Positions 21,885 to 38,911 of a DNA stretch of 64,000 nt are shown in pieces. Under the pieces are notes generated by a model. That model was not told the DNA's origin. It searched no databases and saw only the letters and a program-made list of their open reading frames with translations. The position numbers were made by a program, and so were the translations under genes. The number at the start of each line of letters is the position of its first letter. Position 1 is the first letter of the stretch. This DNA is from an uncultured Acidobacteriota bacterium (lineage in GTDB: Bacteria > Actinomycetota > Acidimicrobiia > Spongiisociales > ZC4RG35): contig CAWILU010000006.1 of the NCBI GenBank assembly GCA_963837055.1, positions 513,455 to 577,454 on the forward strand, in the 5' to 3' direction.

Positions 21885-23279
21885 ATGGGTGAATACGACG
21901 CAGTTGTGGTCGGCTCGGGCCCCAACGGGCTCTCCGCCGCCGCAGAGCTGTCGCGGCGCGGGCGCAGGGTGCTGGTGATCGAACAGGCCGAGGAGATCGG
22001 TGGTGGGACCCGGACCGAGGAGCTCACGCTCCCCGGTTTCGCCCACGACGTCTGCTCGGCGATCCATCCCCTCGGAGTCGCCTCGCCCTTCTTTCGTGAC
22101 CTCCAGCTGGAGATGGAATGGGTCCATCCCACCATCCCACTGGCCCATCCCCTGGGCAGCGGCCGGGCCGGTGTCATCTCCAGAGACGTCGACGCCACCG
22201 CGGACCGATTCGGCGCCGACGCGCGTCACTACAAGCGGATCCTCGGACCACTGGTCCAGGCTGCCGACGCGGTGATGGAGGATTTCCTGGGGCCGATGAC
22301 CCTGGTGCCAGATAATCCAGGGAGCTTCGTCAAGCTCGCCACCAGGGGGGCGCTCCCGGCTTCGATCATTGCCTCCGGCTTTTCCTCGGACGAGGCCCGG
22401 GGCGTATTTGCCGGTCTCGCCGCTCACGCCATCGCCCCATTCAGCTCACCTTTGACCGGTGGGGTGGCACTCCTCTTCGGTGTGACGGCTCATGCCTATG
22501 GATGGCCGATGGCAAAGGGCGGCTCACAGCGCATCGCCGAGGCCCTGGCCAAGGTCATCGTGGATGGTGGCGGCAGCATCGAGACCGGGCGGATGATCGG
22601 TTCTCTCGACGAGCTTCCCCGCGCTCCGGCAGTGATCCTCGATGTGATGCCCCGTGCCGCGGTCCGCATTGGCGGAGCCCGCGTCAGCCCTCGGGACCGG
22701 CGCCGGCTGACGGCTTGGAAGGGTGGGCCGGCCGTGTTCAAAGTCGACTGGGCTCTCGATGGGCCGATCCCGTGGGCCGATGAATGGAGCCCGCAGGCGG
22801 GGACGGTCCACGTCGGTGGGACCTGGGAGGAGGTTGCCGCGGCCGAGGATCAGGTTCACGCCGGGCAACACCCGGAGCGACCCTTCGTTCTCGTCGCCCA
22901 GCAGTCCCGCTTCGACCCTTCCCGCGCTCCCGAGGGGAAACACACCGCCTGGGGGTATTGCCATGTGCCGTCCGGCTCTGACGTGGACATGACTTCAGCG
23001 ATCGAGGCCCAGTTGGAGCGATTCGCGCCGGGGTTCAAGGATCTCATCCTCGAAAGGCACACCATGAATGCCGGCCAGTTCGAGGCCCACAACCCCAACT
23101 ACATCAGGGGTGACATCGCAGGTGGCGGTTTCGGGGTGAAGAAGGTGTTCCAGCTGGGCTCGACCGCCCCGTATCGGCTAGGCGACGGTCTCTATCTCTG
23201 CTCCTCCGCGACCCCACCAGGGGCGGGTGTGCACGGCATGTGCGGCTACTACGCCGCCCGAGCTGCCCTCAAGGGCTGA
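21885..23279 (+). CDS. phytoene desaturase family / NAD(P)/FAD-dependent oxidoreductase (CrtI-like)
   Basis: YDAVVVGSGPNGLSAAAELSRRGRRVLVIEQ dinucleotide-binding motif; 464 aa amine-oxidase-like fold. Confidence 0.8.
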   Translation: MGEYDAVVVGSGPNGLSAAAELSRRGRRVLVIEQAEEIGGGTRTEELTLPGFAHDVCSAIHPLGVASPFFRDLQLEMEWVHPTIPLAHPLGSGRAGVISRDVDATADRFGADARHYKRILGPLVQAADAVMEDFLGPMTLVPDNPGSFVKLATRGALPASIIASGFSSDEARGVFAGLAAHAIAPFSSPLTGGVALLFGVTAHAYGWPMAKGGSQRIAEALAKVIVDGGGSIETGRMIGSLDELPRAPAVILDVMPRAAVRIGGARVSPRDRRRLTAWKGGPAVFKVDWALDGPIPWADEWSPQAGTVHVGGTWEEVAAAEDQVHAGQHPERPFVLVAQQSRFDPSRAPEGKHTAWGYCHVPSGSDVDMTSAIEAQLERFAPGFKDLILERHTMNAGQFEAHNPNYIRGDIAGGGFGVKKVFQLGSTAPYRLGDGLYLCSSATPPGAGVHGMCGYYAARAALKG

Positions 23280-24540
23280 CGGCGGCGGGAGGCGCGTCGG
23301 CCCCACGGACCCAAATGCCGATGCCTTCGGGTTGCATGGTCGAGGAGACCACGGCAACCCAGCCGGTCATCACCTCCTCGGGGTCGACCCGGTCCCGGAG
23401 TGACGTAGCAAAGCCATCCATCACCCGTTGGGCGTCGAAGCGTTCCCGGTTGAAACGGCGGTCCACCCAACCCTGGACCCGCTTTCGCAAGGGATTGAAC
23501 AGGGCGGCTACCACCAGCGTCGACCCGGCCACGGCCAGATCTGATGACTCCTCGGGCAGCAGGGAGGACATCAATGCAACGACACCGAGGAACGAGCCTG
23601 CCAACAATCCGACCACCAGGGCATAGGAGACCGTCCGGGACACGATCCGGTCGATCTCGTAGAGGCGGTAGCGGAGAACGGCCACACCGAAAGAGAGAGG
23701 GAACAGGACCATCATCACGTATGCCGGGCCCCAAGCATCGTCACCGGGATCGCCGGCACCGATACCGATCGAGATGAAGACGTAGAGAAACGTAAGCAGC
23801 ACAGCGGTGGTCAACAGCACGAAGGCAAACACCACCCAGGTGAGCTGGGCACGCTCCGCCCCGACCGCCCGACGTCTCTTGATCACCAGTGACACCGCGC
23901 CACCGAGCAGGATGGCGACGATGCCGAACAGTGCCGCGTAGCCCAGCCATTCGGGTAGGAAGCCGATTGGATTGACAGTCTGGGTCGAGGATTCCGCACC
24001 CCCCAACGTCGCGGTCAGGGCAGTGGCAGCGAGAAGAATCGGCAGGACCCAGACAGCGACACGTCCTGCCCTGGCCCATAGACCGGTGCCCGCCGGCAGA
24101 TGCCCGGAAGGGAAGGTCAGAGTCAGGGCCGCGAACAGGCAAAACACCAGAGCCCAACCCCAGCTGGATACCCAGGCGGCGAACAACGGGGACACATCCG
24201 GCAGACCGATTAGCCCGTCGGCCCACAACACCGCCAAACCGATCCAGAGCAGCAACCAGCCAGTCAGGTGACCGTTGCGACGTATGACAATCAGGCCGCC
24301 GATCGAGGCATAGATCAGAAAGCCGAAGGCGGCGAGGGTGGCGTCCGCAAACGGGCGATCGCTCAGTATCAGCTGGAGGAACGAGATCCCGAGCCCGGCC
24401 AGGACGAGGAGGCCAAGCAGGGCCCAGCGGGCCCACCGACTCAGTTGGGACTGCTCTGTGAACTCAATTGTCCCGGTCGGGCTCAATTCCGTTCGCGGAA
24501 TCGTCTCACACGGCCGCGAGCGCCGCGGACTCGTCGTCAA
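23269..24540 (-). CDS. polytopic membrane protein, paralog A of the 7-member family with a conserved C-terminal cytoplasmic module
   Basis: 423 aa; about 8 TM helices. The C-terminus RYRLYEIDRIVSRTVSY ... NPLRKRVQGWVDRRFNRERFDAQRVMDGF ... WVRG is shared with the array at 26811-33618. Confidence 0.7.
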   Translation of the reverse strand: MTTSPRRSRPCETIPRTELSPTGTIEFTEQSQLSRWARWALLGLLVLAGLGISFLQLILSDRPFADATLAAFGFLIYASIGGLIVIRRNGHLTGWLLLWIGLAVLWADGLIGLPDVSPLFAAWVSSWGWALVFCLFAALTLTFPSGHLPAGTGLWARAGRVAVWVLPILLAATALTATLGGAESSTQTVNPIGFLPEWLGYAALFGIVAILLGGAVSLVIKRRRAVGAERAQLTWVVFAFVLLTTAVLLTFLYVFISIGIGAGDPGDDAWGPAYVMMVLFPLSFGVAVLRYRLYEIDRIVSRTVSYALVVGLLAGSFLGVVALMSSLLPEESSDLAVAGSTLVVAALFNPLRKRVQGWVDRRFNRERFDAQRVMDGFATSLRDRVDPEEVMTGWVAVVSSTMQPEGIGIWVRGADAPPAAVSP

Positions 24541-24856
24541 AGATCTCGATGGCCTCGTCGAGACGGGTGAGCGAGAAGATCTGGCAGTAATGATCGGTCA
24601 GGCCATAGGCCATGAGTCGGTGCCCACTGCGCTGGGCGCGGATCAGCGTGGTGACCAGGAGGCCTATGCCCCCACTGTTCATGTACTCGAGACCCTCGAA
24701 ATTGAGCACGACGGCGGCCACCCCGCCCTGCGAGGCCTCGTCGTGTGCGGCTGAGATCTCCTTCTCGGAGAACCCGGTGATCTCACCGGTGATGTCGATG
24801 ACCCTGACCGTCGGAGTCGCCTCCCTCACGGTCATCGTCACATTGGCTGTTGGCAT
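24506..24856 (-). CDS. STAS domain anti-sigma-factor antagonist (SpoIIAA/RsbV-like)
   Basis: STAS fold with the conserved phospho-acceptor context (NFEGLEYMNSGGIGLL). The start is probably MPTANV at 24856. Confidence 0.7.
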   Translation of the reverse strand: MPTANVTMTVREATPTVRVIDITGEITGFSEKEISAAHDEASQGGVAAVVLNFEGLEYMNSGGIGLLVTTLIRAQRSGHRLMAYGLTDHYCQIFSLTRLDEAIEIFDDESAALAAV

Positions 24857-24869
24857 ATCCTCCCTCTCC

Positions 24870-25211
24870 TCACCCGGCCGCGACTGCGGCCGTCTCATCG
24901 TCATAGATAGTCATGAAGTCGGACAGACGGGTGATGCTGAACACCTCCCGATAGTGCTCCGTCAAACCGAATGCCCCGACCTCACGGTCCTCCGCTCTGG
25001 CCATCGCCAGCACCCCGACGATGACGGCGATACCCGTGGAGTTGATGTAGTCCACGCCCCGGAAGTCCATCAGGACTCGCCCTGGCTGCTCGGCGGCTTC
25101 CTCATAGGCCGCCTCCAGAGCCTGCTTGGCTGCCCGGTTCACGGTCCCGCTCATGACCACCAGGGACCCGTCTTCGGTCCTGGCCACCGTTGCCTCGAAC
25201 ACGCTCTCCAT
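24870..25211 (-). CDS. STAS domain anti-sigma-factor antagonist (SpoIIAA/RsbV-like)
   Basis: 113 aa; DFRGVDYINSTGIAVIVG has the conserved Ser/Thr. Its start overlaps the PP2C-HATPase stop by one base (TGATG). Confidence 0.8.
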   Translation of the reverse strand: MESVFEATVARTEDGSLVVMSGTVNRAAKQALEAAYEEAAEQPGRVLMDFRGVDYINSTGIAVIVGVLAMARAEDREVGAFGLTEHYREVFSITRLSDFMTIYDDETAAVAAG

Positions 25212-26800
25212 CAGGAAACTCCTTCCCGGTTCATCACGAGCTCAATCGTGTGGGTTGCACCGTCACTGGTCGATCGCACCTCGTCGACCATCTGTTCGAT
25301 CAGGAACAGGCCCCATCCACGAGGGGTCTGCTCCCCGGCGAGCTTGGCCTCCAGGTCCGGCAACGCCGCCTCCGGGATCACCCGATGACCGCCCTGATCG
25401 CTGACCAGAACACTCACGCTGTCCTCATTGGCGCATACCTGGACGTCGACGTCGAGATCGGCGCGATTGTCGTTGCCATGCTCGATGGCGTTCATCACGG
25501 TCTCGCCCACCGCTGTCTTGAGCCGCTCGAGTCGCGCCGGCTCGAGACCCATGTCCTCGATCGCAGCTGTCACCTTGGCGATGGCGACGCGCTCGTTGCC
25601 TTCCTCGCTGGGGACCGCGAACTTGGCCAACACCTGGCGCCGCTCTTCGAATGTCTCCGCCGAGGCCTGGGCGGAAGCGGTCCGCTTCACTACGACGAGG
25701 GTTATGTCGTCTTCCTGCTCCGCATCCTCGCCGGTGAATGCCTCCAGATCGGACACGACGGCATTGAGGACGTCGTCGTTGATGGGTCTCCGGGCAACGC
25801 GGGCCATGAGCCGGGCGAAGCCGTACATCTCGCCTTCGGCGCTGTGGGCCTCGGTGATCCCGTCGCTGGTGAGGACCATGACCTCGCCCGGCGACATCTC
25901 GTACTTGGCCTCGTCATAGGGCATTCCCGGCATGAGGCCGAGAGGCATGCCGGTGGCCCGCAATTCGATGACTTCGTCTCCGCTGCGCACATAGGGCAAA
26001 TTGTGCCCGGCATTGGCGAAGACGATGTGTCCTGCCTCGGTGTCGATGATCGCGTAGAGACAGGTCACGAACATCGCCGGCGGGATCTCCGGAACCAGGC
26101 CATCATTGACGTCGGCCAGCACGGCGGATGGGGAGTTGTGACGCTGGGCGGCCGCTCGCAACATCGAACGGCAGGTGGCCATCACGAGTGCGGCCGGGAC
26201 TCCTTTGTCGGTCACGTCGCCGATCACGACGCCGAGCCGCCCGTCCTCGAGGGCGATGAAGTCGTAGAAGTCTCCGCCGACCGCCCGGGCGGGTCGGTAG
26301 AAGGCGTCGACATGCCAGCCCGGGATGGCAGGCAATTCCTTGGGAAGCAGGGTCTGCTGGATGAGGGCCGCGACCTGTAGCTCCTGGTGAATCCGCTCTC
26401 TCTCCTTGGCCTCTGCCTGCTGCTCACGCACCAGTTGGGCGACCTTCATCGCCGGAGCCACCTGAGAGGCGAGACTGCCGAGCAGCCGTCGATCATCGGT
26501 CGAATAGGGCTGATCGGAGAGACGTGGGCCGAGATAGAGGGCACCGAGCAGCTCACCCTGGCCGATCAAGGGCACGATGAGCTCGACTCCGACGGCCCGA
26601 AGACTGTCGAGAGTCTCCGATTCGAGCTCTAGGTCCCCAAGCACCAGTGGGCCCCCGGACGACAACAGCAGGGTCTCCAACGGGTCCCCGACCGGAATCG
26701 GGATGGCTTCGATGAGCCGGGTCTTCGACTCCGGGATCTGTGTCTCGTCCGCAATCGGTGTTTCTTCGTCGGCTCTGCGCCGTCTCATCAGCTGAACCAT
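25211..26800 (-). CDS. partner-switching regulator: degenerate GAF - PP2C (SpoIIE-type) phosphatase - HATPase_c (RsbW-like kinase) fusion protein
   Basis: PP2C motifs GGDFYDF and GDVTDKGVPAALVMA ... DGITEA; C-terminal HATPase_c ETVMNAIEHGN ... DQGGH. The start at 26800 lies 10 nt downstream of the paralog B stop. The alternative start at 26905 would overlap paralog B. Confidence 0.85.
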   Translation of the reverse strand: MVQLMRRRRADEETPIADETQIPESKTRLIEAIPIPVGDPLETLLLSSGGPLVLGDLELESETLDSLRAVGVELIVPLIGQGELLGALYLGPRLSDQPYSTDDRRLLGSLASQVAPAMKVAQLVREQQAEAKERERIHQELQVAALIQQTLLPKELPAIPGWHVDAFYRPARAVGGDFYDFIALEDGRLGVVIGDVTDKGVPAALVMATCRSMLRAAAQRHNSPSAVLADVNDGLVPEIPPAMFVTCLYAIIDTEAGHIVFANAGHNLPYVRSGDEVIELRATGMPLGLMPGMPYDEAKYEMSPGEVMVLTSDGITEAHSAEGEMYGFARLMARVARRPINDDVLNAVVSDLEAFTGEDAEQEDDITLVVVKRTASAQASAETFEERRQVLAKFAVPSEEGNERVAIAKVTAAIEDMGLEPARLERLKTAVGETVMNAIEHGNDNRADLDVDVQVCANEDSVSVLVSDQGGHRVIPEAALPDLEAKLAGEQTPRGWGLFLIEQMVDEVRSTSDGATHTIELVMNREGVS

Positions 26801-26810
26801 GGCCCCATTT

Positions 26811-27959
26811 CTATCTCTCGACCGTCCCGAAATCGTTACGAACCCATACCGAAATCGATGTCGGGTGCATCGTCTCGGACACCACTCCCACCCAGCCCTC
26901 GACAACAGTGTCCGGGTCGAGGTCCTGCCGCAGGGAACCCGAGAATTGGTCCATCACCTGCTCTGCGTCGTAGCGCGACCGGTTGAAACGTCTCTCCACC
27001 CCTGCCTGGACCCTTCTCCGCAACGGTGTGAAGAGGGCAGCGGCGGCCAGGGTAGAGCCCGCCACGGCCAACGGGGACTCGGCGTCGAGGACTGCGGTGA
27101 GGGCGGTCAATCCCAGTGCATAGACCGCACCGAGCAGGGCGATCACGATGACATACGAGACCGTGCGCGACAGGATCCGGTCGATCTCGTAGAGCCGATA
27201 ACGCAACACGGCAAAAAGGATCGAGATCGGTATCGCGGCCACCCCGAGTGAGACAATCCACCAGATGGCTTGGTTGGAATCGTCTGACGTCGCTCCCACC
27301 AGATAGGCGATGGCAAGAAGACTGGTGGCGGCGAGCAGCCACTTGATCTGCTGACGCTCGACCGACTCCGCCCTCCGATAGCGGGCCACCACGGACAACG
27401 TCGCCGGGATGACGGAGACGAATCCGAAGATGAAGCCGGCGTCGACGAGTGGGTACCACCGCGTCGGGCTGAGCAGCTCTGAGTCCACGAGTATCTCCAG
27501 AGGCTGCCCCCAGAGAAGACCCGCCCCGATCACGGTCGACACGGCACCGATCAATGGTCCGAGACCGATGACACGCCACCAGCCAACCGGCTTTCCGGTC
27601 GGGAAACACAGAATCACGAGCGAGACCCCAATGAGAAATAGGGCACCGGTCCAAGCCCCGAGCCAACCAAAGAAATATGCCAAGGGCAGGGAGTTCCCCG
27701 ATTCGAGGGAGAGTGTCGCGTATCCCCTCCCGAACAGATAGAGCACCCAGGCCGAACCGGCAGCCAGAGAGAGGGCGCCGATCGCGTTCGACGGCACCTT
27801 GATGGTCAGGATCGCCCCGACGACCACAGAGCACACCGAGGCGAAGAGGATCCCGACCATCGAGTCGATATCCATCGGGAAAGTCAGCCAGGCGATTGCC
27901 GCGCCGATCATGAGGAGGACCCAAAGCGCGATGGCGGCCCGAAGAGGTTTGGAAGTCAT
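26811..27959 (-). CDS. polytopic membrane protein, paralog B (conserved C-terminal module family)
   Basis: The real start MTSKPLRAAIALW is at 27959. The 708-aa track ORF is an artefactual extension through paralog C in another frame. C-terminus RYRLYEIDRILSRTVSY ... RRFNRSRYDAEQVMDQF ... VWVR. Confidence 0.75.
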   Translation of the reverse strand: MTSKPLRAAIALWVLLMIGAAIAWLTFPMDIDSMVGILFASVCSVVVGAILTIKVPSNAIGALSLAAGSAWVLYLFGRGYATLSLESGNSLPLAYFFGWLGAWTGALFLIGVSLVILCFPTGKPVGWWRVIGLGPLIGAVSTVIGAGLLWGQPLEILVDSELLSPTRWYPLVDAGFIFGFVSVIPATLSVVARYRRAESVERQQIKWLLAATSLLAIAYLVGATSDDSNQAIWWIVSLGVAAIPISILFAVLRYRLYEIDRILSRTVSYVIVIALLGAVYALGLTALTAVLDAESPLAVAGSTLAAAALFTPLRRRVQAGVERRFNRSRYDAEQVMDQFSGSLRQDLDPDTVVEGWVGVVSETMHPTSISVWVRNDFGTVER

Positions 27960-28996
27960 CCGTCTCGCACCCATACGCCGGCGGCAGCCGGCTCCATGGT
28001 GGCAAACACGACCCCGATCCAGCCGTCGATGACCCCATCCGGGTCGACCTGGTTCTGCAGGGAACCGGAGAAGATGTCCATCACCTTCTGGGCGTCGTAG
28101 CGGGCCCGGTTGAACCTGCGGTCGACCCAGCTCTGAACCCGTTTGCGGACCGGGTTGAACAGCGCGGCCACCGCCAGAGTCGAGGCGGCGACGACGAGGT
28201 CGCTGGACGTGTCGAGCAGCGTGCTGGTGGCGGTGACCAAACCGAAGAACACTGCGGCCAACAGTCCGACGACCAACAAGTAACTGACCGTCCTGGACAC
28301 GATTCGATCGATCTCGTAGAGGCGGTAGCGGGTGATTGCAATCGCGACCGAGATGGGGACCCCGATGGTGATGATCATGCTTATCGCCGTGATGAGGGTC
28401 TGGGCCTCGGCCGAGGCGCCGAGAACGACACTCACGAGGACCAGCGAGACAACACCCACGAGCAGGACCAGGATCGGTCCTGCGACCTGACGGCGGATCA
28501 ATGGGGATCCCTTGATCAGCCGGTAGAGAAGCGGCAGTAAGCCGAGGATGACGACGACCGCGATGAAGCTGCCCGCCACCATGCTCAGGATGGCGATGGC
28601 GGCGGCATGCACCCAAGGCCACCACGGTCGCCGGTAGCGCCCGTCGGGAAAAAGTGTCAGTGACGAAAAGAGTGTCAACAGACCGGCATCGAAGACGATC
28701 TGTCCCGGCGTGACCAGGGCCGGGGTATTGAGAGTCTCCGCCATCTCCTGGAGGGCAACCCCTGCGCCGACGAGAAGCGGTCCGACGATGAACAGCCATC
28801 CAACTGCATTCGCCGGGATCCGCCGGGCCAGCACAACCCCAACGATCGGAAAGGCGAAGAAGGAGAGAGCCCACAATTTGTCCAGTAGGCCGATCACCTC
28901 CTCGGATCCGGGATCGAACCAGAGCGCGGCAGCCCACACCATCACGAGAAGTCCGAAGAGCGCCCAGGGCAGAATGCCGACCAATCGACGTCTCAC
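27956..28996 (-). CDS. polytopic membrane protein, paralog C (conserved C-terminal module family)
   Basis: 346 aa. The start ATG at 28994-28996 overlaps the paralog D stop (ATGA). The conserved C-terminal module is present. Confidence 0.8.
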   Translation of the reverse strand: MRRRLVGILPWALFGLLVMVWAAALWFDPGSEEVIGLLDKLWALSFFAFPIVGVVLARRIPANAVGWLFIVGPLLVGAGVALQEMAETLNTPALVTPGQIVFDAGLLTLFSSLTLFPDGRYRRPWWPWVHAAAIAILSMVAGSFIAVVVILGLLPLLYRLIKGSPLIRRQVAGPILVLLVGVVSLVLVSVVLGASAEAQTLITAISMIITIGVPISVAIAITRYRLYEIDRIVSRTVSYLLVVGLLAAVFFGLVTATSTLLDTSSDLVVAASTLAVAALFNPVRKRVQSWVDRRFNRARYDAQKVMDIFSGSLQNQVDPDGVIDGWIGVVFATMEPAAAGVWVRDG

Positions 28997-30096
28997 GCCG
29001 GCCCCCTCACCCAGACCGCGGCCGTGGCCGGCTGCATCTTCTCGGTCACCACACCGATCCAGCCTTCGACCACCTCCTCGCTGTCGACCCGGTCACGCAA
29101 CGATCCGGCAAAGCGGTCCATGACCCGCTGGTGGTCGTAGCGCGACCGGTTGAATCTATGGTCGACCGATGCCTGGACCCGCCTCCGCACCGGGTTGAAC
29201 AGGGCAGCCGCCGCCAGGGTCGATCCGGCTACGGCGAGCGGCGAGTTGTCGGGGAGGAACAAGGTCATCGCCGTCAGACCGATGAAATAGGCAGCGCCGA
29301 GCAGGACAACCACGATCACGTAGGCCACGGTTCGGGAGAGAATTCGATCGATCTCGTAGAGCCGATATCGGGTGACCGCGATCCCGATCGTTACCGGGAT
29401 GAGGATGAATCCGGCGGGCAGGAACACATTCGCCACGAGCGAGTACTGAAACCCACCGAACTCGGCGATGACGCCGATCAGGAAGACGATGAAGGCGAGG
29501 ACCAGCCACTTCATCTGCAGCCTCTCCACGCCCCTGGACCGAATCCAACGGACGACTAGTGAGATGATCGCGGCCACGATCCCGACGAGGATCAGGACCA
29601 ACCCGAGGATGTTGGCGCAAGAGCCGATCGAAACACATGCATCGACGTCAGCGGAGCCCGCCCCCTCCAGAGCCAACATTGCCCATCCGCCGATGATCCC
29701 GATCACGCCAACCGTCGCCACGACCGAGACCCAGCGCCAGCGCGGGGTCAGGGCCCGGCCGGTGGGGAACCAAAGGGGCACGAAGACGCCGAGACCAGGA
29801 AGCACGAGGGCGAAGAGGGCGATGCCACCGGCGATTTCGAGGAGGCTGCCAGGCTCGGACCCATCGGCGGCGTTCATGACGCCATCGCCCAAGGCGACCA
29901 GGAGCATGACCCATGACAGCCGGTTCTCGGGCACCTTCAATACCAGCAGTGCGCCCGTGGCGAGAAGGGAGAGAGTGCCGAGAGCGAACACCACGCCCTC
30001 GCCGGTCAAGCCCCCGCGAATCGCACCGGCCACCATGCCGCCGAGCACCATGACGGTGACCAAGGCGACGGTCAGGATTCGCCAGCCTCTGCTCAT
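28993..30096 (-). CDS. polytopic membrane protein, paralog D (conserved C-terminal module family)
   Basis: 367 aa; ATGA overlap with paralog E. Mid-protein FPTGR-x-RWRW loop motif and the conserved C-terminal module. Confidence 0.8.
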   Translation of the reverse strand: MSRGWRILTVALVTVMVLGGMVAGAIRGGLTGEGVVFALGTLSLLATGALLVLKVPENRLSWVMLLVALGDGVMNAADGSEPGSLLEIAGGIALFALVLPGLGVFVPLWFPTGRALTPRWRWVSVVATVGVIGIIGGWAMLALEGAGSADVDACVSIGSCANILGLVLILVGIVAAIISLVVRWIRSRGVERLQMKWLVLAFIVFLIGVIAEFGGFQYSLVANVFLPAGFILIPVTIGIAVTRYRLYEIDRILSRTVAYVIVVVLLGAAYFIGLTAMTLFLPDNSPLAVAGSTLAAAALFNPVRRRVQASVDHRFNRSRYDHQRVMDRFAGSLRDRVDSEEVVEGWIGVVTEKMQPATAAVWVRGPA

Positions 30097-31298
30097 TCAG
30101 CGCCATCCCTGACCCAGACACCCGCTGATGCCGGATGCATCGTCTTGGAAACCACTTCGATCCAGCCCGACACCACCTCCGGCCCATCCACTTGGTTGCG
30201 CAACGACCCGGAGAACTCGTCCATCACCAATTCGGCGTCATAGCGAGATCGATTGAAACGCCGATCGACCCGGCCGAGCACCAAGCGTCTGATCGGGTTG
30301 AACAGGGCGGCGGCGGCCAATGTGGAGGCGGCCACTGCAAGCTGCGACTGCTCGGGGAGGAGGGTGGTCAGCCAGGTGAGCGCACCCAGATAGCCGGCCC
30401 CCAACACGACGACCACCAAGACGTAGCCCACGGTGCGGGAGATCACTCGATTGATCTCGTAGAGACCGTGGCGGGTGATGGCGATGCCAATCGCGGCTGC
30501 AGTCCCATTCCCCCACAGGGCGAATGCGACCACCACGGGATCGAAGCCCTGGATCCCGACAACGAGCTCTTCCAGGACGCCTGTGGCAAGGAACATCACC
30601 GGGAAGGCTGCGACAGCTAGGACGAACCACCGGAACTGCAGCCGCTCAACACCCGAGGAGCGCCGGAACCGAATGACCAAATCAACCACTGCGACTAGGG
30701 CAATCACGGCCAGTGCGGTGCCCAGCCATTCTGTGGCCGGGTCGAGCAGATCTCGGGCCCCAGGTATGCCGAGCGGGTTGTCCGGAGGGGTGTCACCCAC
30801 CACGGGGCCCGGGCGAAGTGCAAAGACCAGAGCGTCCACCAAGGTGACGAGGAGGAAGGCTCGGAGGATCCACCGGCCAAACCGACTCGGATCACCTGAT
30901 GGATACAAGACGACGAGGGTCATCACCAAAGCCACCACGGGGAGGAATCCCCAGGTCGCCACCCAGGCGGCCGGACCGCCGAACGGCCAGGCACCGGACT
31001 CGGTGACCAGGGCGAACCTCGCATATTCAGATGCGAGAAGATCGATCCCGACGCCGAATGTGATGCCGCACATGAGCCAGCCGATGCGATTGGCGGGGCG
31101 ACTCGAAACCACCAGGGCGCCGACCAGACCGAATCCGACCCACGTCGAGAGCCAGATCGCTCCTTCGAGTGCGGACTCTTGAGCCTGGGTGGTCGAGATC
31201 GGCGGGTTCATCTCGGTCAAGACCGCCGCCAAGACGATCATCGCCACACCCGTCAGCCACATCACCCACGCAATCCATCGGCTAGTGCGAGACCTCAT
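30093..31298 (-). CDS. polytopic membrane protein, paralog E (conserved C-terminal module family)
   Basis: The real start MRSRTSRWIAW is at 31298 and overlaps the paralog F stop (ATGA). The track ORF is extended 5'. This is the most divergent copy (RHGLYEINRV). Confidence 0.75.
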   Translation of the reverse strand: MRSRTSRWIAWVMWLTGVAMIVLAAVLTEMNPPISTTQAQESALEGAIWLSTWVGFGLVGALVVSSRPANRIGWLMCGITFGVGIDLLASEYARFALVTESGAWPFGGPAAWVATWGFLPVVALVMTLVVLYPSGDPSRFGRWILRAFLLVTLVDALVFALRPGPVVGDTPPDNPLGIPGARDLLDPATEWLGTALAVIALVAVVDLVIRFRRSSGVERLQFRWFVLAVAAFPVMFLATGVLEELVVGIQGFDPVVVAFALWGNGTAAAIGIAITRHGLYEINRVISRTVGYVLVVVVLGAGYLGALTWLTTLLPEQSQLAVAASTLAAAALFNPIRRLVLGRVDRRFNRSRYDAELVMDEFSGSLRNQVDGPEVVSGWIEVVSKTMHPASAGVWVRDGAE

Positions 31299-32431
31299 GA
31301 CCCGTCTCTCACCCAAACCCCCGCCAACGCGGGCTCCATCGTCTCGGAGACGACTCCGACCCATCCATCCACCAGATCGCCTTCGTCGACGCGGTCCTGT
31401 AGAGACCCGGCGAACCGATCCATGACACGTTCGGCGTCGTATTTCGAACGGTTGAAACGACGGTCCACCCAACCCTGGAGCCGCTTGCGCAGCGGGTTGA
31501 AGAGTGCGGCGACAGCGAGAGTGGATCCGGCGACCGCCAGCTGGCTCTCGGCTGGCGACACCCAGGTGAGGACAGTCACGGCTCCGACGAACACGAGCCC
31601 GAGGACCCCCACCACGAGGATGTACCCGACGGTCCGGGAGATGAGCCGGTCGATTTCGAAGAGGCGGTATCTGACCACCGCAACACCAATGCAGATCGGG
31701 ATGGCGGATCCTCCTACCAGCCAGAACAGCTCGAATACCGAATCTTCAGGCAAGACCTGGCCGGCGGCGGAGATGACCACGAACAGACATGCACCCAGGA
31801 GCAGCCACCGGTACTGCTGGCGTTCGATGCCCGTACTCCTTCGGCTTCGGCGGATGAGGCTGACAATCGCCGCTGCAGAGAGGCCGACCACGAAGAAGAA
31901 CCCCGTATCGCCGATGATGAAATTCAATACCGAGCTCAGCTCTACACCGAGTGGGTTTTTCAATCCGGTGTCCGTGAGTGGGAGCGGGCTCAGCACGAAA
32001 CCGATCACCGCCAAAGATCCGATCGCGATCACCGCCCGCCCCACGAATCTCTCCAGACGACCGGGGTATTCACCGGTAGGGAAGGTCGTGAGGAGCCAGA
32101 CAACGATCAGCCAGGGGACAACGCCCAACGTCGTATAAACGAGCTCGATCCACGCGGCCGCTTCGAGCGGCACGCGGAGCACGATGGACTGGAGCCCGAA
32201 CGAAACTCCCCAGACCAACCCGATGGCGAGACAGGCCATCCCGATCTTGTTCCCCGGCCGTCGCATCAGGATGATCCAACCCACGACCGGCCACGCCGCC
32301 CAGGACGCCGGCCACAGTTGATCACTGGTGTCGGCCAGGGGCCCGAAGAACATTCCCAGAAAAATGCCGCCCACGGCCAGCAAGAGAAGAGCGGTGAGGA
32401 GGATCTTCCTCAAGGTCCCTCCCTCAGCCAC
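31295..32431 (-). CDS. polytopic membrane protein, paralog F (conserved C-terminal module family)
   Basis: 378 aa; conserved C-terminal module (RYRLFEIDRLISRTVGY ... RRFNRSKYDAERVMDRF). The 5' end overlaps the paralog G 3' end by 22 nt. Confidence 0.75.
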   Translation of the reverse strand: MAEGGTLRKILLTALLLLAVGGIFLGMFFGPLADTSDQLWPASWAAWPVVGWIILMRRPGNKIGMACLAIGLVWGVSFGLQSIVLRVPLEAAAWIELVYTTLGVVPWLIVVWLLTTFPTGEYPGRLERFVGRAVIAIGSLAVIGFVLSPLPLTDTGLKNPLGVELSSVLNFIIGDTGFFFVVGLSAAAIVSLIRRSRRSTGIERQQYRWLLLGACLFVVISAAGQVLPEDSVFELFWLVGGSAIPICIGVAVVRYRLFEIDRLISRTVGYILVVGVLGLVFVGAVTVLTWVSPAESQLAVAGSTLAVAALFNPLRKRLQGWVDRRFNRSKYDAERVMDRFAGSLQDRVDEGDLVDGWVGVVSETMEPALAGVWVRDGS

Positions 32432-33618
32432 ACCCCAGCCGCTGCCGGATGCATGGTCTCGCTCACGACCGAGACCCAGCCATCGACCACAACACCTGGG
32501 TCGACCTCGTCACGCAGGGCGCCGGTGAAACCGATCATCACCCGTTCGGCGTCGTACCGGGTCCGATTGAAACGGTGATCGACGAAGGACTGGACACGTT
32601 TTCGAACCGGGTTGAACAAGGCGGCGGCGGCCAAAGTCGACGCGGCTACGGCAAGCGAGGACTCGGTGTCGAGCACGGACGTCAAGCCGGCCAGACCAAG
32701 GGCGTAGACCGTCCCGAGCAAGGCGATGACGATCACATAGGAGACGGTGCGGGAGATGATCCGATCGATCTCATAGAGCCGATAGCGGAGGATGGCGAGG
32801 GTGGCGGCGATGGGGATACCCAGGATCGAGAGATCGATCCAGATCTCCACAACCAGCGGCGGCTCAACGATGCCAAACAGCTCGAGGATCATCTCCGAGG
32901 TGAGGGCGAGCACGAACGAGAAACAGGCGAGAAGGAACCATTTCAACTGGAGCCGCTCGATCGACTCCGCCCTTCGGAAACGCAAGAACAGCGAGACCAC
33001 CGCTGCTCCCATGAAGAAGGGGTAAAGGGCGAAGAGGGGGCCGCCCAGCCAGCCGTACTCAGGGTTGGGCATGCCAGGGATCCCGATCGGATTGTCCGCC
33101 CACGCGGCGCAACCGAGCGGACCGCCCTCATCGATACAGATCTGGTCGGTGAAGATGTAGGTGATGAAGGTAAGGGCGACCAGAGCGAAGCCGAGCCACT
33201 GCAGCCAGAGCCAGCGTCGACTGGGGACATGCCCGGTGGGGAACCAGAGAACCAGGGTTCCGATGCCGACGATCCAACCCAGCCAGAAAGCGCCGCCGAT
33301 GGCCTGAAAGACGAGCAGCCCCCGCTCGGCCAGCCCCCCGGCCAACCCGGCGGAGAGGATCGAAAGGCCGATGGCCGAGAAGACCCATCCGACCCGGTTT
33401 CCGTCTGCCTTCCACAGAATCAGCGGCCCGAGCGCCAGAAAGGCGACCATCGTCGCGATGTTGCCGAACGTCTCGGCATCCACTGCCGGAGGCCACCATC
33501 CCAGAATCCCACCCAGTATCAACGTCGTTAGCAGCAGCAAGCTGATCACTGCCACAACGAGCGCGGCTGTTTTGCTGGCGTTGGGGGTTATCGCCTCTCC
33601 ATCCCTCATCGAGACCAC
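32410..33618 (-). CDS. polytopic membrane protein, paralog G (first gene of the array; conserved C-terminal module family)
   Basis: 402 aa. GTG start at 33618, or ATG at 33609. Conserved C-terminal module and FPTGHVPSRRWLW loop. Confidence 0.75.
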   Translation of the reverse strand: MVSMRDGEAITPNASKTAALVVAVISLLLLTTLILGGILGWWPPAVDAETFGNIATMVAFLALGPLILWKADGNRVGWVFSAIGLSILSAGLAGGLAERGLLVFQAIGGAFWLGWIVGIGTLVLWFPTGHVPSRRWLWLQWLGFALVALTFITYIFTDQICIDEGGPLGCAAWADNPIGIPGMPNPEYGWLGGPLFALYPFFMGAAVVSLFLRFRRAESIERLQLKWFLLACFSFVLALTSEMILELFGIVEPPLVVEIWIDLSILGIPIAATLAILRYRLYEIDRIISRTVSYVIVIALLGTVYALGLAGLTSVLDTESSLAVAASTLAAAALFNPVRKRVQSFVDHRFNRTRYDAERVMIGFTGALRDEVDPGVVVDGWVSVVSETMHPAAAGVWLREGP

Positions 33619-33733: not shown

Positions 33734-36475
33734 TTGCTCGACATCAAACTTCTGGGCCAACCCGACGTTTCGATCTCCGGACGTCCCGTGATCGTCGACA
33801 CCCGCAAGGCGATCGCTCTTCTCGCCTATCTCGTGGTAGAGAAGTCGGCGAGCAGGGACACATTGTCCGGCTTGTTCTGGGCCGATTCCTCGCAGGAAAG
33901 GGCCAGGGCGACCCTGCGCCGGACACTGTCCGCGCTGAAGGGCGCAACCGGAACCGATCTCATCGACGCAGACCGCAACCTCGTCTCGCTCGTAGGTGAG
34001 GTCAGCTCGGACCTTGACATCCTCGAGTGGGAGTTGGCGGCAACCGGGGACCATGGTCACGACCCACGCGATGTCTGCGACCGTTGCATCCCCCACCTTC
34101 GCCGGGCCACCGAGCTCTACCGGGGCGAGTTCCTCGAAGGTTTCTCCGTCAAGGCATCCCCCGAATTCGACGACTGGGTGCGAAACGTGGCCGAGTCGAC
34201 CAGAGTTCGAATCGGGGACGCCTTCAATCGACTCGGTACCGCCCTCGCCGCGAACGGTGAATACCCGCCCGCCATCGTCGCCGTCCTGCAGTGGATCGAG
34301 CTCGATCCACTCCATGAGCCGGCGCATCGATTCCTGATGCTGCTCCACGCGTGGGCCGGGGACCGCCCTGGCGCGATCGAGGCGTACCGCAGCTGTGTGA
34401 CGATCTTGGACCAGGAGCTCGGGGTGGCCCCGTTGGACGAAACCACCGAGCTCTACGAGGCGATCCTCGACGAGGACCTCCCGCCCGCCCCGGGCGCTCG
34501 CCGACGGGTGAAGGCCGAGGCCAGGCCGAGCCGACAGCCGCCGCCGGATCTGATCGATCGCGATGTCGAGCTCAATGCGCTTCAAGACGCGCTCCGTGAG
34601 AGTGCCACCGGCAAGGGCGTGCTGGTTGCAGTCACCGGTGCACCGTGGATGGGGAAGACACGGCTCCTCGAGGAGCTGGCCAACGAGGCGGAGGGAGAGC
34701 GTGATGTCCTGATTGGGCGGGCCTTTCGCATGGAGCAGACCCTGCCCTACGGCGTCGCCACCCAGGTGCTCGGCAACGCGCAGAACCGGATCGAATCTCG
34801 GCGGGCTGAGATCCCGCCCTGGGCCATGGCGGAGCTCGGAAGACTGCTGCCGGGCATGTCTCCTCCGTCCACCGATTCGGTCCCCGACCGCTTCGGCGAG
34901 CTGAGACTGCTCGAAGGGATCAACACCGTATTCACCGTGCTGGCGACAGAGCGCCCATTGCTTGTGATCCTCGACGACGCGCAATGGATGGACGCGTCCT
35001 CGGCGTCCATATTCTCCTACCTCGCCCGCCGCATCTCGCACATCCCGGTGCTAATGGTGTTGGCCGCCCGAGCCGACGACGACCTCCTCCCCGCGGTTGC
35101 CGAGGCGATGGGTGCAGCTGATATCGCGGTACCCATCTCCCCGCTGACTGCCGACGAACTGCTCCCTTTGGTTGGGGGTGAGACGGCGACAGCCGTGTCC
35201 CTCATCGAGCGAACCGGAGGGGTTCCACTGTTGGTCAACGAAGCGCTCACCGCAGGGTCTGACGCTGCGCCGGCCACGCGTGGAGTGGCCCGCTACATGG
35301 AGGCCCGACTCCTGGAGATCGACGATCTCGGCCACCAGATCCTCAGCGCCGCCGCCGCGCTCCATGGCGTCTGTGATGCGACCCTCCTCAGAGAGACGAG
35401 TGGACGCAGCGAGGAAGAAGTGGTGCATGCGGTCGAGCGGCTGGTGGCCGCCGGACTCCTCCGCGAGATACCCGAATCCGACGGGCTCACTTTCACTCTC
35501 GATGCCATGGAGCGAGTCACCTACGACAGCATCTCGATGGTGCGACGTCGGCTGCTCCATCGTCGGACAGCGCGGGCCCTGGCCGAGCGGGGTCACGCCC
35601 GGACCGACGCACGGTTGGCCGGGGCCATTGCCGGCCAGTTTCAGGCGGCCGGCGACCCTGAGGCGGCAGAGTGGTTCCATCTCGCCGGTGGCCTGGCCCG
35701 TGCGGCGTTCGCCAACGACTCTGCCCGGCAGTTCTACCGGGCCGCGCTGGCGATGGGTCACCCCGAGGTGGCCCCGATCCATCTCGCCCTGGGAGAGCTG
35801 GCCATGGCCTCCGGCGAGTACGAACAGGCTCGCCAGGAACTGACCCTGGCCGCCGGTCATGCCGACTCGGGGCTGATCGGACTGATCGAGCACAGGATGG
35901 GAGAAGTCGAGCGTCTTCTTGGCCATTTCAACGCCGCCGAGGAGCATTTCGCCCAATCGATCGAGACCCACCCCGCCCCGGCGGCCCTGCTCGCGGACTG
36001 GGCCCTCTTGGCCCATCGAACCGGCGATTCGGCCAACGCCACCGACCTGGCGGAAAAGGCATGGGCGGCCGCCGATCTGGAGGGCGACCCGGAATTGCTT
36101 TCTCGGGTCAGCAACATCCTCGCCGTCGTGACGGTCGACAGCGAGGCCGCCCTCGCCCACGCCGAGGACGCCATTCGTCTCGCCGGTGAAGACGATCTGC
36201 TGCGAATGGCCGCCCTGAACAACAAAGCCATCCTCCTCTCCGAGAACGGCGACCGGGAACGCTCGATCGATCTGGTTCGAGAGGCGATCGACATCGCTGC
36301 CCGCACCGGGCACCACCATCAGGAGGCGGCGTTGTGGAACCATCTCGCCGACCTCCACCATCGCCAGGGGCGCGGTGACGAAGCGAAGGATTCATTGACC
36401 AAGGCGGTCGCTCTCTTCGCCGACATCGACACCGGCGAGCCCGAGCCCGAGTTGTGGCTCCTCTCCCGTTGGTGA
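33734..36475 (+). CDS. AfsR/SARP-family transcriptional regulator (SARP wHTH + BTAD + P-loop NTPase (NB-ARC-like) + C-terminal TPR repeats)
   Basis: TTG start. N-terminus LLGQPDVSISGRPVIVDTRKAIALLAYLVV (SARP DNA-binding domain); BTAD ELYRGEFLEGF ... LDPLHEPAHRFLMLLHAWAGDRPGAIEAYR; Walker A GAPWMGKTRLLEEL; TPR-like C-terminus. Confidence 0.85.
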   Translation: MLDIKLLGQPDVSISGRPVIVDTRKAIALLAYLVVEKSASRDTLSGLFWADSSQERARATLRRTLSALKGATGTDLIDADRNLVSLVGEVSSDLDILEWELAATGDHGHDPRDVCDRCIPHLRRATELYRGEFLEGFSVKASPEFDDWVRNVAESTRVRIGDAFNRLGTALAANGEYPPAIVAVLQWIELDPLHEPAHRFLMLLHAWAGDRPGAIEAYRSCVTILDQELGVAPLDETTELYEAILDEDLPPAPGARRRVKAEARPSRQPPPDLIDRDVELNALQDALRESATGKGVLVAVTGAPWMGKTRLLEELANEAEGERDVLIGRAFRMEQTLPYGVATQVLGNAQNRIESRRAEIPPWAMAELGRLLPGMSPPSTDSVPDRFGELRLLEGINTVFTVLATERPLLVILDDAQWMDASSASIFSYLARRISHIPVLMVLAARADDDLLPAVAEAMGAADIAVPISPLTADELLPLVGGETATAVSLIERTGGVPLLVNEALTAGSDAAPATRGVARYMEARLLEIDDLGHQILSAAAALHGVCDATLLRETSGRSEEEVVHAVERLVAAGLLREIPESDGLTFTLDAMERVTYDSISMVRRRLLHRRTARALAERGHARTDARLAGAIAGQFQAAGDPEAAEWFHLAGGLARAAFANDSARQFYRAALAMGHPEVAPIHLALGELAMASGEYEQARQELTLAAGHADSGLIGLIEHRMGEVERLLGHFNAAEEHFAQSIETHPAPAALLADWALLAHRTGDSANATDLAEKAWAAADLEGDPELLSRVSNILAVVTVDSEAALAHAEDAIRLAGEDDLLRMAALNNKAILLSENGDRERSIDLVREAIDIAARTGHHHQEAALWNHLADLHHRQGRGDEAKDSLTKAVALFADIDTGEPEPELWLLSRW

Positions 36476-36908: not shown

Positions 36909-37142
36909 GGGCCCACACACCCTTGATGGGGGTGGGGGTAATCCCCTATTGGATTGTCCACAGGAATCTGGATGATTGGGGAGCGGGGAGACTTCAGGGC
37001 ATCACTCCGTCCCTGGAAGCGACAATGGGGACCATCGGGGGACCGCGGTAGCGGTCCCCCTTTGACTGCGAGAAAAGCCATCCAAACCTCCACACCAACC
37101 GTCAAGAGCCGCAAAATCCCCGGCCCGCTAGCTTCCGAGTCG

Positions 37143-38258: not shown

Positions 38259-38911
38259 CCGACAGGCTCCGTCTCATCATCGTTGACGACCACGACGTGG
38301 TCAGGGCCGGAATGAGAGCAATCCTCGACCCGTCCTTCGACATCGTCGGCGAAGCGGACAACGTGGACAGCGCGATCGAGCTCATCAAGGAGCGGCTCCC
38401 CGACCTCGTGGTGCTCGACGTCAAGTTGCCGGGTGGTGGTGGCGCCGCAGTCATACCCGCCGTGCGTCGTGACTTCCCGGACATCAGGTTCATGGCACTC
38501 ACCGTCTCCACCTCGAAGGAAGACGTCGCCCGGCTCCTCGACGCAGGAGTCGACGGGTACATCACCAAGACCACACTCGGCGCCGATCTTCCCGACCTGG
38601 TCAGACAGACGTATGTCGGTGCTCGACCGGTCTCCCCCGATGTGGCGGCTTACCTCCTGGACATCGACGAGGGCATCACCGGCGAAACACCGATCTCGCG
38701 TCTCACGCCGAGAGAGCGGGAGGTGGTGAATCTCATCGCCCGCGGCTACACCTACCGGGAGAGCGCCGAGCGTCTCGGCATCACGGTGAAGACGTTGGAA
38801 AACCACATGGCGCACATCTTCGACAAGCTCAGTGTCGCCAGCCGTCATGAGCTCACCGCCCTCGCCTACGAGGAGGGCTACGTCCGCCCCGACGACGAAC
38901 GGAACAAATAG
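38255..38911 (+). CDS. NarL/FixJ (LuxR-type) family response regulator
   Basis: REC domain (LIIVDDHDVVRAG ... D54 context LVVLDVKLPGG) plus a LuxR HTH (TPREREVVNLIARGYTYRESAERLGITVKTLENHMAHIFDKL). Confidence 0.9.
   Translation: MTDRLRLIIVDDHDVVRAGMRAILDPSFDIVGEADNVDSAIELIKERLPDLVVLDVKLPGGGGAAVIPAVRRDFPDIRFMALTVSTSKEDVARLLDAGVDGYITKTTLGADLPDLVRQTYVGARPVSPDVAAYLLDIDEGITGETPISRLTPREREVVNLIARGYTYRESAERLGITVKTLENHMAHIFDKLSVASRHELTALAYEEGYVRPDDERNK

Follow-up and report, generated by a model that had tools for sequence, protein, structure and literature searches.

The SpoIIE protein of B. subtilis is a polytopic membrane protein with 10 TM helices joined to a PP2C phosphatase, which dephosphorylates a STAS protein and is opposed by a HATPase_c_2-type kinase/anti-sigma factor. 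The locus described here lies in the stretch of 64,000 nucleotides that was analysed (the window), and its phosphatase belongs to the same Pfam family, PF07228, as that of the SpoIIE/SpoIIAA/SpoIIAB system. Five homologous proteins, P0260-P0263 and P0277, have the same order as SpoIIE, with a membrane part, a regulatory part and PP2C, a likeness of domain architecture only. The window differs from the SpoIIE system in that the membrane part is encoded separately, by seven gene copies set apart from the phosphatase gene by a stop codon, 10 nt and an ATG, in that the GAF regulatory domain is divided between two proteins, in that kinase and phosphatase form one chain, and in that no sigma-F-type gene is found nearby. 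Completion of a beta-sheet domain by a strand from another polypeptide occurs in the donor-strand complementation of chaperone-usher pili and in split GFP and split phytochrome; these are assembly or engineered systems, and the likeness of the window to them is an analogy.

In the stressosome, RsbR paralogs that differ in their sensing parts but share a conserved C-terminal part for docking feed one PP2C acting on a STAS antagonist (PMC11821858, PMC12143880). Several paralogous sensors and one PP2C are common to the RsbU/RsbV/RsbW system with RsbR and to the window. However, the conserved part of RsbR is a STAS domain, which lies in a cytoplasmic icosahedral complex and acts via the RsbT kinase, whereas the putative sensors of the window are 10-TM membrane proteins whose conserved part comprises two TM helices, a cytoplasmic helix and a GAF fragment. 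The Pfam search gave no STAS match in this conserved part, and no RsbT/RsbS-like genes were present, the only STAS proteins being two small ones encoded 3' of the PP2C gene. An anti-sigma kinase domain fused to a PP2C phosphatase is known from M. tuberculosis Rv1364c, and PPM phosphatases are controlled by N-terminal GAF, PAS and receiver domains via crossing helical linkers (PMC12143880). C. difficile RsbZ, S. coelicolor OsaC and Rv1364c have, like the window phosphatase, an N-terminal GAF/PAS and a helix that connects it to a PPM phosphatase, but their sensor domain is complete and within one soluble chain, whereas the window protein has GAF positions 43-132 only, with the rest on the membrane proteins. 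Finally, HisKA_7TM is the 7TM sensor region at the N-terminus of histidine kinases, with an unknown ligand (PMC5847659); the window paralogs have 10 helices instead of seven, and no histidine-kinase domain follows them. Neither a natural split signalling GAF with many alternative donors nor this membrane-array/GAF'-PP2C system was found in a full-text literature search.

The paralog array and its partner-switching neighbours

The first-pass annotation had described six consecutive minus-strand genes arranged head to tail with a seventh copy downstream, and the ORFs of the window confirm this. The array comprises, on the minus strand, paralogs G (32410..33618, 402 aa, a membrane protein of ~10 TM helices), F (31295..32431, 378 aa), E (30093..31298, 401 aa from the ATG at 31298), D (28993..30096, 367 aa), C (27956..28996, 346 aa) and B (26811..27959, 382 aa), which is the last gene. 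The seventh copy, paralog A (23269..24540, minus strand), is located downstream of the STAS genes, and its start is uncertain, at 24540 or 24486. Paralog D, the query of the homolog search, is identical to protein P0001, encoded on a 429-kb ENA contig; on this 100%-identical contig an independent gene call gives 399, 372, 387, 367, 346 and 382 aa for G to B and a PP2C protein of 529 aa. A 708-aa ORF considered for paralog B was discarded as a high-G+C artefact, the start of B being at 27959.

At the F/E, E/D, D/C and C/B junctions the genes overlap by 4 nt (ATGA), the ATG of E for example overlapping the stop codon of F, which indicates one operon. The TAG stop codon of B is followed by 10 nt and then by the ATG of the PP2C gene, and the seven paralogs, the PP2C-HATPase gene and the two STAS genes form a single minus-strand operon.

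The PP2C-HATPase and STAS genes adjoin the last array gene, and an AfsR-like gene lies on the other side of the array, both as previously reported. The former gene (25211..26800, minus strand) codes for a bifunctional regulator of 529 aa with a truncated GAF (hereafter GAF'), a PP2C domain of the SpoIIE family and an RsbW-like HATPase_c_2. The SpoIIE domain (PF07228) scored 182.5 bits over profile positions 2-191 of 192, and HATPase_c_2 (PF13581), C-terminal to PP2C in the same chain, 71.5 bits over positions 3-125 of 127. STAS protein 1, of the anti-sigma antagonist type (24870..25211, minus strand), and STAS protein 2 (24506..24904, minus strand), with STAS domain scores of 39.8 and 45.5 bits, carry a candidate phospho-serine in INSTG and MNSGG, respectively, presumably at the position of Ser58 in SpoIIAA. 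The cluster itself holds no sigma factor, and in the genes scanned around it no sigma-factor domain was detected except a Sigma70_r4 inside a LuxR-type response regulator.

The estimate of about 8-10 TM helices per paralog fits the AlphaFold2 model of the homolog P0263, with ~10, and a crude hydropathy scan, with 9-10. In the Pfam search, HisKA_7TM (PF16927) matched paralog F at 31.6 bits, the only copy above the gathering cutoff of 28.6, and paralog B at 22.7 bits, below this cutoff; G, E, D, C and A gave no match. With 4 of 46 members of the family alignment matching at E <= 0.01 and a precomputed HisKA_7TM annotation on a few homologs, the membrane part appears to be a marginal relative of this domain. 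The domain search found no histidine-kinase domain (HisKA/HATPase_c) in any of the seven paralogs.

The protein alignment of the seven copies showed an overall identity to G of 37-42% (about 40%), and 53 invariant columns, nearly all within the last ~125 residues. All the shared motifs listed earlier were recovered (RYRLYEIDR, LAVA.STLAAAALFNP.R, VDRRFNRSRYDA, GW..VV..M.P....W.R, FPTG..P..RW and R.RR....ER.Q.KW). The C-terminal module had been called near-identical across copies, and this does not hold: the paralogs are 57-72% identical in it at the protein level and 62-70% at the DNA level, and third codon positions are near saturation (0.37-0.56). A repeat of 300 nt occurs seven times in register with no long identical tracts; together with thousands of family homologs, it argues that the array is not due to chance. 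The seven paralogs are old duplicates.

A head-to-tail layout with a conserved 3' block beside an expressed partner could also arise from silent or exchangeable cassettes recombining via the 3' module, from decaying duplicates, or from an assembly artefact that splits one 10TM-GAF-PP2C gene, and read-through "fusions" do occur in error-prone contigs. Such origins are highly improbable in view of the DNA divergence of the block, its saturated third positions and its want of long identical tracts. In addition, each copy in the array has an intact reading frame and a start and a stop of its own, the 4-nt overlaps couple the genes, 232 of 243 copies in other loci are intact, the arrangement of stop, gap and start that separates B from PP2C recurs in dozens of independent assemblies, and individual copies have orthologs at 70-84% identity in other genomes.

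Two parts of one GAF domain on neighbouring genes

Two TM helices, a cytoplasmic helix of ~35 residues and the first helix and strand of a GAF make up the conserved module, which represents the juxtamembrane portion of an uncharacterised sensor-phosphatase architecture, 10TM-GAF-PP2C. The first-pass annotation could match it to no named domain; this stands for most of the module, but the last ~30 residues can now be assigned, from the alignment of their sequences, to the GAF N-terminal helix (a1) and strand (b1), at about Pfam GAF positions 1-30. The fragment of paralog G, DPGVVVDGWVSVVSETMHPAAAGVWLREGP (32413..32502), aligns to residues 395-425 of P0263, in which the Pfam GAF match begins at 396. 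The corresponding fragments, all on the minus strand as that of G, are found at 31298..31387 in F, 30096..30188 in E, 28996..29085 in D, 27959..28045 in C, 26814..26918 in B and 23272..23385 in A. Searched alone, the paralog tail examined gave no Pfam GAF match. Ten residues of the tail are invariant among the seven paralogs despite the saturated synonymous sites, so that this fragment is under purifying selection though incapable of being a domain alone. Of 243 module ORFs in other loci, 232 have their stop no more than 15 residues away from b1.

The GAF' of the PP2C protein (Pfam match at 26426..26710, minus strand) is without a1 and b1 and covers only positions 43-132 of 133 in Pfam GAF and 45-127 of 129 in GAF_3. 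GAF domains of the PDB align to it by their C-terminal two thirds only, for example Ta0848 by residues 47-135 of 149. The inspected PP2C genes of this type were all without a1/b1, and their proteins have in common a conserved N-terminal peptide, M-x-x-L-x-x-x-RR. A complete GAF in one polypeptide (PF01590 / PF13492, positions ~1-133) is absent from the paralogs and the PP2C protein and was found in the fused homologs only.

These Rosetta-stone fusions, with membrane protein and phosphatase in one chain, are the five distinct sequences P0260, P0261, P0262, P0263 and P0277, which have 86-88% mutual identity, are open across the junction and include GAF-PAS-PP2C in their architecture. In all five the module is followed by ~20 residues and then by the GAF' sequence, and the matches run end to end (Pfam GAF 1-132 of 133, GAF_3 1-127 of 129), the GAF match starting at the residue aligned to the "D-P-x-x-V" of the window tails. 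The fusions are rare and from one lineage, and could therefore be secondary. The AlphaFold2 model of P0263 (mean pLDDT 83.8, pTM 0.70) has 10 TM helices and, after a long cytoplasmic helix, a1 (397-412) and b1 (417-421), which a disordered loop separates from the rest of the GAF. The modelled GAF exceeds the ~95 residues after the loop, which indicates that the tail elements belong to the fold in this single-chain homolog. In the model of P0144, a read-through artefact from a split-type system, b1 and GAF' were poorly folded (pLDDT < 50 at 194-238), that half being covered by 5 sequences only. When the tail of B was joined in silico to the PP2C protein, the GAF_3 match widened to 3-127, with a gain of only ~2 bits.

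The two halves are homologous to one GAF domain, their gene linkage is conserved (see below) and the tail is under purifying selection. With the first GAF piece on the paralogs and the remainder on the neighbouring phosphatase gene, the paralogs look like interchangeable inputs to a single switch of stress signalling that is widespread but has not been characterised. Our best explanation, to which we give a probability of about 0.55, is that they serve as alternative input subunits in the membrane, docking on a single partner-switching phosphatase/kinase and probably completing its GAF in trans.

The paralogs might instead regulate the PP2C-HATPase via other surfaces, such as the loops R.P.N..GW, FPTG..P..RW, R.RR....ER.Q.KW and RYRLYEIDR or the phosphatase N-terminal peptide, the GAF fragment being a remnant of gene fission that has become a helix cap or an element for oligomerisation. 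Synteny and fusions are evidence of functional coupling but do not tell where the contact lies; in the model topology, most conserved motifs of the variable half are on the cytoplasmic side, and the conserved N-terminal peptide of the PP2C proteins would offer a site. Covariation between tail and GAF' was also no stronger than between tail and SpoIIE (240 pairs, Neff 57), that is, without a specific signal. We nevertheless consider this unlikely: few parts of the protein are as conserved as the tail, which ends near b1 in nearly all the ORFs counted above, and the piece absent from GAF' corresponds precisely to it. Moreover, a lone GAF without a1 and b1 should be unstable.

Distribution and linkage of the module family

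The module family comprises ~18,000 clusters at 50% identity (~2,400 at E <= 1e-30), and its members, which come from Actinomycetota and Chloroflexota of soil and sediment, are unnamed or carry automatic labels such as "hypothetical protein". The gene cluster recurs in both phyla. When the membrane protein was used as seed, 30 of 80 genome loci contained GAF'-SpoIIE-HATPase and STAS genes, mostly directly 3' of the array; arrays have 1-12 copies, the last of which usually adjoins the PP2C gene. When metagenome loci were seeded with the truncated GAF, a module gene lay directly 5' of GAF' in 54 of the 66 informative loci and elsewhere in the locus in 3 more, giving 57/66 with any module gene (linkage range 82-86%). 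Synteny with partner-switching genes, whose absence had been set beforehand as a refutation, is thus conserved from both seeds, and together with the membrane protein-phosphatase fusions it supports the signalling context first proposed. Array and PP2C gene need not be adjacent, as shown by many orphan members and by the nine GAF'-PP2C metagenome loci without a module gene nearby; among 12 single-copy loci with long flanks, 10 had no PP2C gene within 10 kb.

The many orphan copies far from PP2C genes, and the name "MFS family permease" given automatically by JGI to a few members, would suit paralogs that work independently, in transport, immunity or envelope maintenance, and are merely co-located or co-regulated with the partner-switching module. 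This is very unlikely given the covalent fusions to GAF-PAS-PP2C and the linkage seen from the phosphatase side. The domain search found no transporter family among the paralogs, whose sole Pfam relative is a histidine-kinase sensor domain, and no support was found for the immunity or insulation role suggested at first.

Proposed signal path and output

The coupling of the paralogs to the PP2C-HATPase system is well supported; docking on the phosphatase, physical complementation, the direction of regulation, the sensed signals and the output are what we infer beyond it. In the proposed complementation in trans, each paralog would combine a variable sensor bundle of ~8 helices, an invariant output module (two TM helices and the ~35-residue helix) and the a1/b1 tail. 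The tail of any paralog would insert into the incomplete GAF of the phosphatase, completing the fold and tethering the enzyme to the sensor. A signal that moves the cytoplasmic helix of the sensor may then reach the PP2C domain by way of the reconstituted GAF and the linker helix C-terminal to it, a linker step modelled on the coiled-coil linker mechanism of RsbU-type phosphatases. The balance of PP2C activity and the fused RsbW-like kinase would decide how far the two STAS proteins are phosphorylated, and these may in turn control a sigma factor whose gene lies elsewhere or the AfsR-like regulator conserved with the cluster. With many paralogs, many membrane or environmental cues could feed into a single cytoplasmic switch or compete for it. 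A more specific version, with up to a dozen 10-TM sensors per genome competing to complete one truncated GAF and possibly an AfsR-like STAND output in place of a sigma factor, is put forward only tentatively.

The partner-switching assignment gives thousands of genes of a large unannotated family a functional context and points to a conserved ten-gene signalling cluster, so far unstudied. If complementation in trans is true, the system would be a natural split sensor domain wiring many inputs to one output, in which one phosphatase hears many membrane sensors without a stressosome and fold complementation at the membrane decides which sensor holds and gates the enzyme, a wiring principle not described before and a ready-made design for synthetic multi-input switches.

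The AfsR/SARP-like regulator (33734..36475, plus strand; BTAD, AAA_16 and TPR) is divergent from the array. Among the genome loci with the PP2C gene it was found in 23 of 30, and among the metagenome loci in 28 of 80, on the opposite strand in every case.

Gene organization of the membrane protein array

Ten consecutive genes are found on the minus strand from 33618 down to 23269 in the window, whose G+C content is about 65%. Six code for related membrane proteins of about ten TM helices, the paralogs G (32410-33618), F (31295-32431), E (30093-31298), D (28993-30096), C (27956-28996) and B (26811-27959). They are followed by the PP2C gene (25211-26800), coding for a 529-aa PP2C-HATPase_c_2 regulator, by the genes of two small STAS proteins, STAS 1 (24870-25211) and STAS 2 (24506-24904), and by the seventh paralog, A (23269-24540). 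The junctions F/E, E/D, D/C and C/B are ATGA overlaps, and the PP2C and STAS 1 genes overlap by TGATG. The gene models were reproduced by gene calling on an ENA contig of 429 kb with identical sequence, and long overlapping ORFs in other frames were discarded by a GC3 filter as high-G+C artefacts. Joining of B and the PP2C protein by frameshifting or read-through is unsupported, the two frames being different and the TAG stop codon of B being separated by 10 nt from the ATG of the PP2C gene; in other loci, the spacing between array and PP2C gene ranges from 35 to more than 700 nt.

On the plus strand, an AfsR/SARP-like regulator with BTAD, AAA_16 and TPR domains (33734-36475) is divergent from the array, and just past it are encoded a HisKA_3-type histidine kinase of 434 aa, whose match is weak, and a 218-aa response regulator of the LuxR type (36954-38911, plus strand). 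At the other end, a FAD-dependent oxidoreductase with a phytoene-desaturase-like Rossmann N-terminus (21885-23279, plus strand) is convergent with paralog A, and a gene weakly matching DUF1990 (21074-21793, minus strand) lies beyond; neither seems linked to the cluster. The AT skew of the plus strand is +0.15 to +0.27 between 26000 and 34000 and about -0.12 to +0.17 elsewhere; the raised values across the array are consistent with hydrophobic residues being encoded by T-rich codons on the minus strand.

Full-length alignment of the seven paralogs, with 37-42% identity, confirmed the seven-copy array proposed in the first-pass annotation, and all the sequence motifs listed there were found. The 53 invariant columns are nearly all within the final ~125 residues. 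The conserved C-terminal module had been described as near-identical; its identity is in fact 57-72% in protein and 62-70% in DNA. The DNA repeat was found seven-fold and in register. The third codon positions of the module match only at 0.37-0.56, showing that the copies are old and that the module is conserved by purifying selection on the protein and not by recent gene conversion. A recombination cassette was rejected on the same third-position values and on the lack of long identical repeats, and the pseudogene and assembly-artefact readings of the array were likewise rejected.

A GAF domain split between two proteins

Pfam and NCBIfam searches with the seven paralogs gave a marginal HisKA_7TM match and a weak PrsK match (E 0.023). 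The HisKA_7TM relation of the membrane part is marginal, with F above the cutoff and 4 of the 46 family members in alignment A3 matching (E <= 0.01). A PDB sequence search with a module profile found no relative and returned chance matches only (baculovirus P35, E 0.37). The claim that the module matches no named domain is thus correct in that Pfam and NCBIfam name nothing there, but its end corresponds to the first helix (a1) and first strand (b1) of the GAF fold. No kinase-fused relatives were present in 1.1 Mb of fetched loci, and no kinase is attached to the sensors.

The PP2C protein matches positions 43-132 of 133 of the GAF profile and 45-127 of 129 of GAF_3, which leaves the N-terminal third of the profile uncovered, and solved GAF domains align with it by their C-terminal parts only; a complete GAF domain is absent from either window protein. 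When the C-terminal tail of B was joined to the PP2C protein, the GAF_3 match grew to positions 3-127 with a gain of about 2 bits, a suggestive but weak pointer to a split GAF domain.

Single-chain homologs, which gave the decisive evidence, were found by searching with a read-through protein as query. Five distinct sequences with 86-88% mutual identity were recovered: P0260 (614 aa), P0261 and P0263 and, as fragments, P0262 and P0277; such fusions are rare and belong to a single lineage. Their chain starts with the membrane domain, followed by ...RYRLYNID..., two TM helices, ...IDRRFYRRKYDARKTLEAFSAKLR and ...DLDALSSELIDVIRETMQPTRVSLWLK, and then, after about 20 residues, by EIEIAPDD...VVPLVSQGELIGLL...AQLVR, PAS and SpoIIE. 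In these proteins the Pfam matches run end to end, 1-132 of 133 for GAF and 1-127 of 129 for GAF_3. The GAF match of P0263 begins at residue 396, which corresponds to the "D-P-x-x-V" of the window tails in A5, an alignment bridged by the fusions and used instead of the MAFFT alignments A2 and A4, in which the two protein classes were misaligned. In the fused lineage (P0277; locus L082, 3-1880), the PAS domain is inserted between GAF and SpoIIE and the protein ends after SpoIIE without HATPase_c_2, so that the output arrangement differs from that of the split systems.

The AlphaFold2 model of P0263 computed with A5 (pLDDT 83.8, pTM 0.70) exhibited ten TM helices and a long helix exiting the membrane (344-393), followed by a helix (397-412), a strand (417-421), a disordered loop (426-437) and the remaining GAF elements. 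Since only about 95 residues are downstream of this loop, the tail helix and strand must be part of the fold. From the end-to-end GAF matches and this model, the module has two TM helices, followed by a connector helix in the cytoplasm and by the first ~30 GAF residues (a1 and b1). The PP2C protein begins with the complementary remainder. The paralog and PP2C products are two parts of one GAF domain, and the GAF tail is under selection. The module is cytoplasmic, as the first-pass annotation had it; it is continuous with GAF-PP2C in the fusions, and Arg and Lys are abundant in its flanks. Covariation by MI/APC gave a lineage-wide signal only: a z above 3 was reached by a fraction of 0.018 of the pairs both between tail and truncated GAF and between tail and SpoIIE.

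Other apparent fusions in the databases, P0144, P0275, P0085, P0371 and P0372 (loci L001, L073 and L009), are read-throughs or fragments from error-prone MAG contigs; this class includes two-module proteins of 600-960 aa and is unfit as Rosetta-stone evidence. P0144 was rejected since L001, the contig that encodes it, abounds in fragmented genes and the PP2C start peptide can still be seen inside the protein; P0275, P0085, the long two-module proteins and, in L073, a tail of 440 residues were rejected likewise. The AlphaFold2 model of P0144, computed with a shallow alignment, had an unfolded GAF half.

Distribution and gene linkage of the two GAF parts

More than 1,271 homologs of D were found at 90% clustering, nearly all of 340-420 aa. 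Most are nameless, the rest being annotated "hypothetical protein" or, automatically, "MFS family permease"; those with named records are from Acidimicrobiia MAGs. The module profile matched 18,465 clusters (50% identity) at E <= 1e-3 and 2,447 at E <= 1e-30, and the module was at the extreme C-terminus in the best 150 matches. Among species-representative genomes, at least 462 loci were found in Acidimicrobiia, Thermoleophilia, Rubrobacteria, other Actinomycetota and Chloroflexota.

Conserved synteny with partner-switching genes held in both directions. Among the 80 genome loci fetched, with arrays of 1-12 copies, 30 carried the truncated GAF-SpoIIE-HATPase gene followed by two STAS genes. 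The last array copy usually adjoins the PP2C gene, and in three loci (L058, L059 and L080) the array is found after the STAS genes. Nearly all module ORFs (232 of 243) end no more than 15 residues from b1. Orphan single copies are common, 10 of the 12 with long flanks having no PP2C gene within 10 kb, and adjacency of array and PP2C gene is therefore not obligatory. In the reverse test, 80 metagenome loci were seeded with the truncated GAF: a module gene was directly upstream in 54, elsewhere in the locus in 3 and absent in 9, and 14 had too little upstream sequence. In the exceptions to this linkage, the GAF domain is still truncated. The genes are linked in two phyla and both truncations are uniform.

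The AfsR-like gene was divergent in 23 of the 30 PP2C-bearing genome loci and present in 28 of the 80 metagenome loci, on the opposite strand every time; this co-conserved protein may be an output or a regulator of the system. No sigma-factor gene was found near the cluster. Full-text literature searches gave no description of the protein family, of the cluster or of a natural split GAF domain; array, PP2C and STAS genes form a signalling cluster that is real and conserved but unstudied.

Proposed signalling mechanism

STAS antagonists lose their phosphate to SpoIIE/RsbU-family PP2C phosphatases and are phosphorylated by HATPase_c_2 proteins, which also hold a sigma factor. Such phosphatases are controlled, via crossing helical linkers, by a GAF, PAS or receiver domain at their N-terminus, and Rv1364c combines phosphatase and anti-sigma domains in one protein (PMC12143880). 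The cluster resembles a partner-switching pathway with a membrane-anchored, SpoIIE-like PP2C protein and multiple paralogous, RsbR-like inputs but, unlike RsbR-type inputs, the sensors are not STAS proteins. The preferred reading of the first-pass annotation, sensor subunits docking on a common signalling partner, is supported and sharpened.

In the mechanism we propose, each membrane paralog would donate its a1 and b1 to the incomplete GAF domain of the phosphatase, which would be tethered at the membrane. Movement of the connector helix, driven by the sensor, would reach the PP2C domain by way of the GAF domain and the linker (AQLVREQQAEAKERERIHQELQVAALIQQ) and would change how far the two STAS proteins, both of which keep a candidate serine, are phosphorylated. 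The seven paralogs, with their divergent membrane parts, would feed distinct cues into a single switch or compete for access to it. We give this fold-completion mechanism close to even odds, with a probability of roughly 0.4-0.55.

The PP2C-HATPase subfamily also has a conserved N-terminal peptide, M-x-x-(L/I)-x-x-x-(R/K)-R in the homologs of alignment A7, which could be a second docking element. It is MVQLMRRRR in the window (26770-26800, minus strand) and MTRLSHIFRR or MTALTRPIRRLLGR in other PP2C-HATPase proteins. A low-complexity stretch separates it from the truncated GAF domain, and the genuine fusions lack the peptide.
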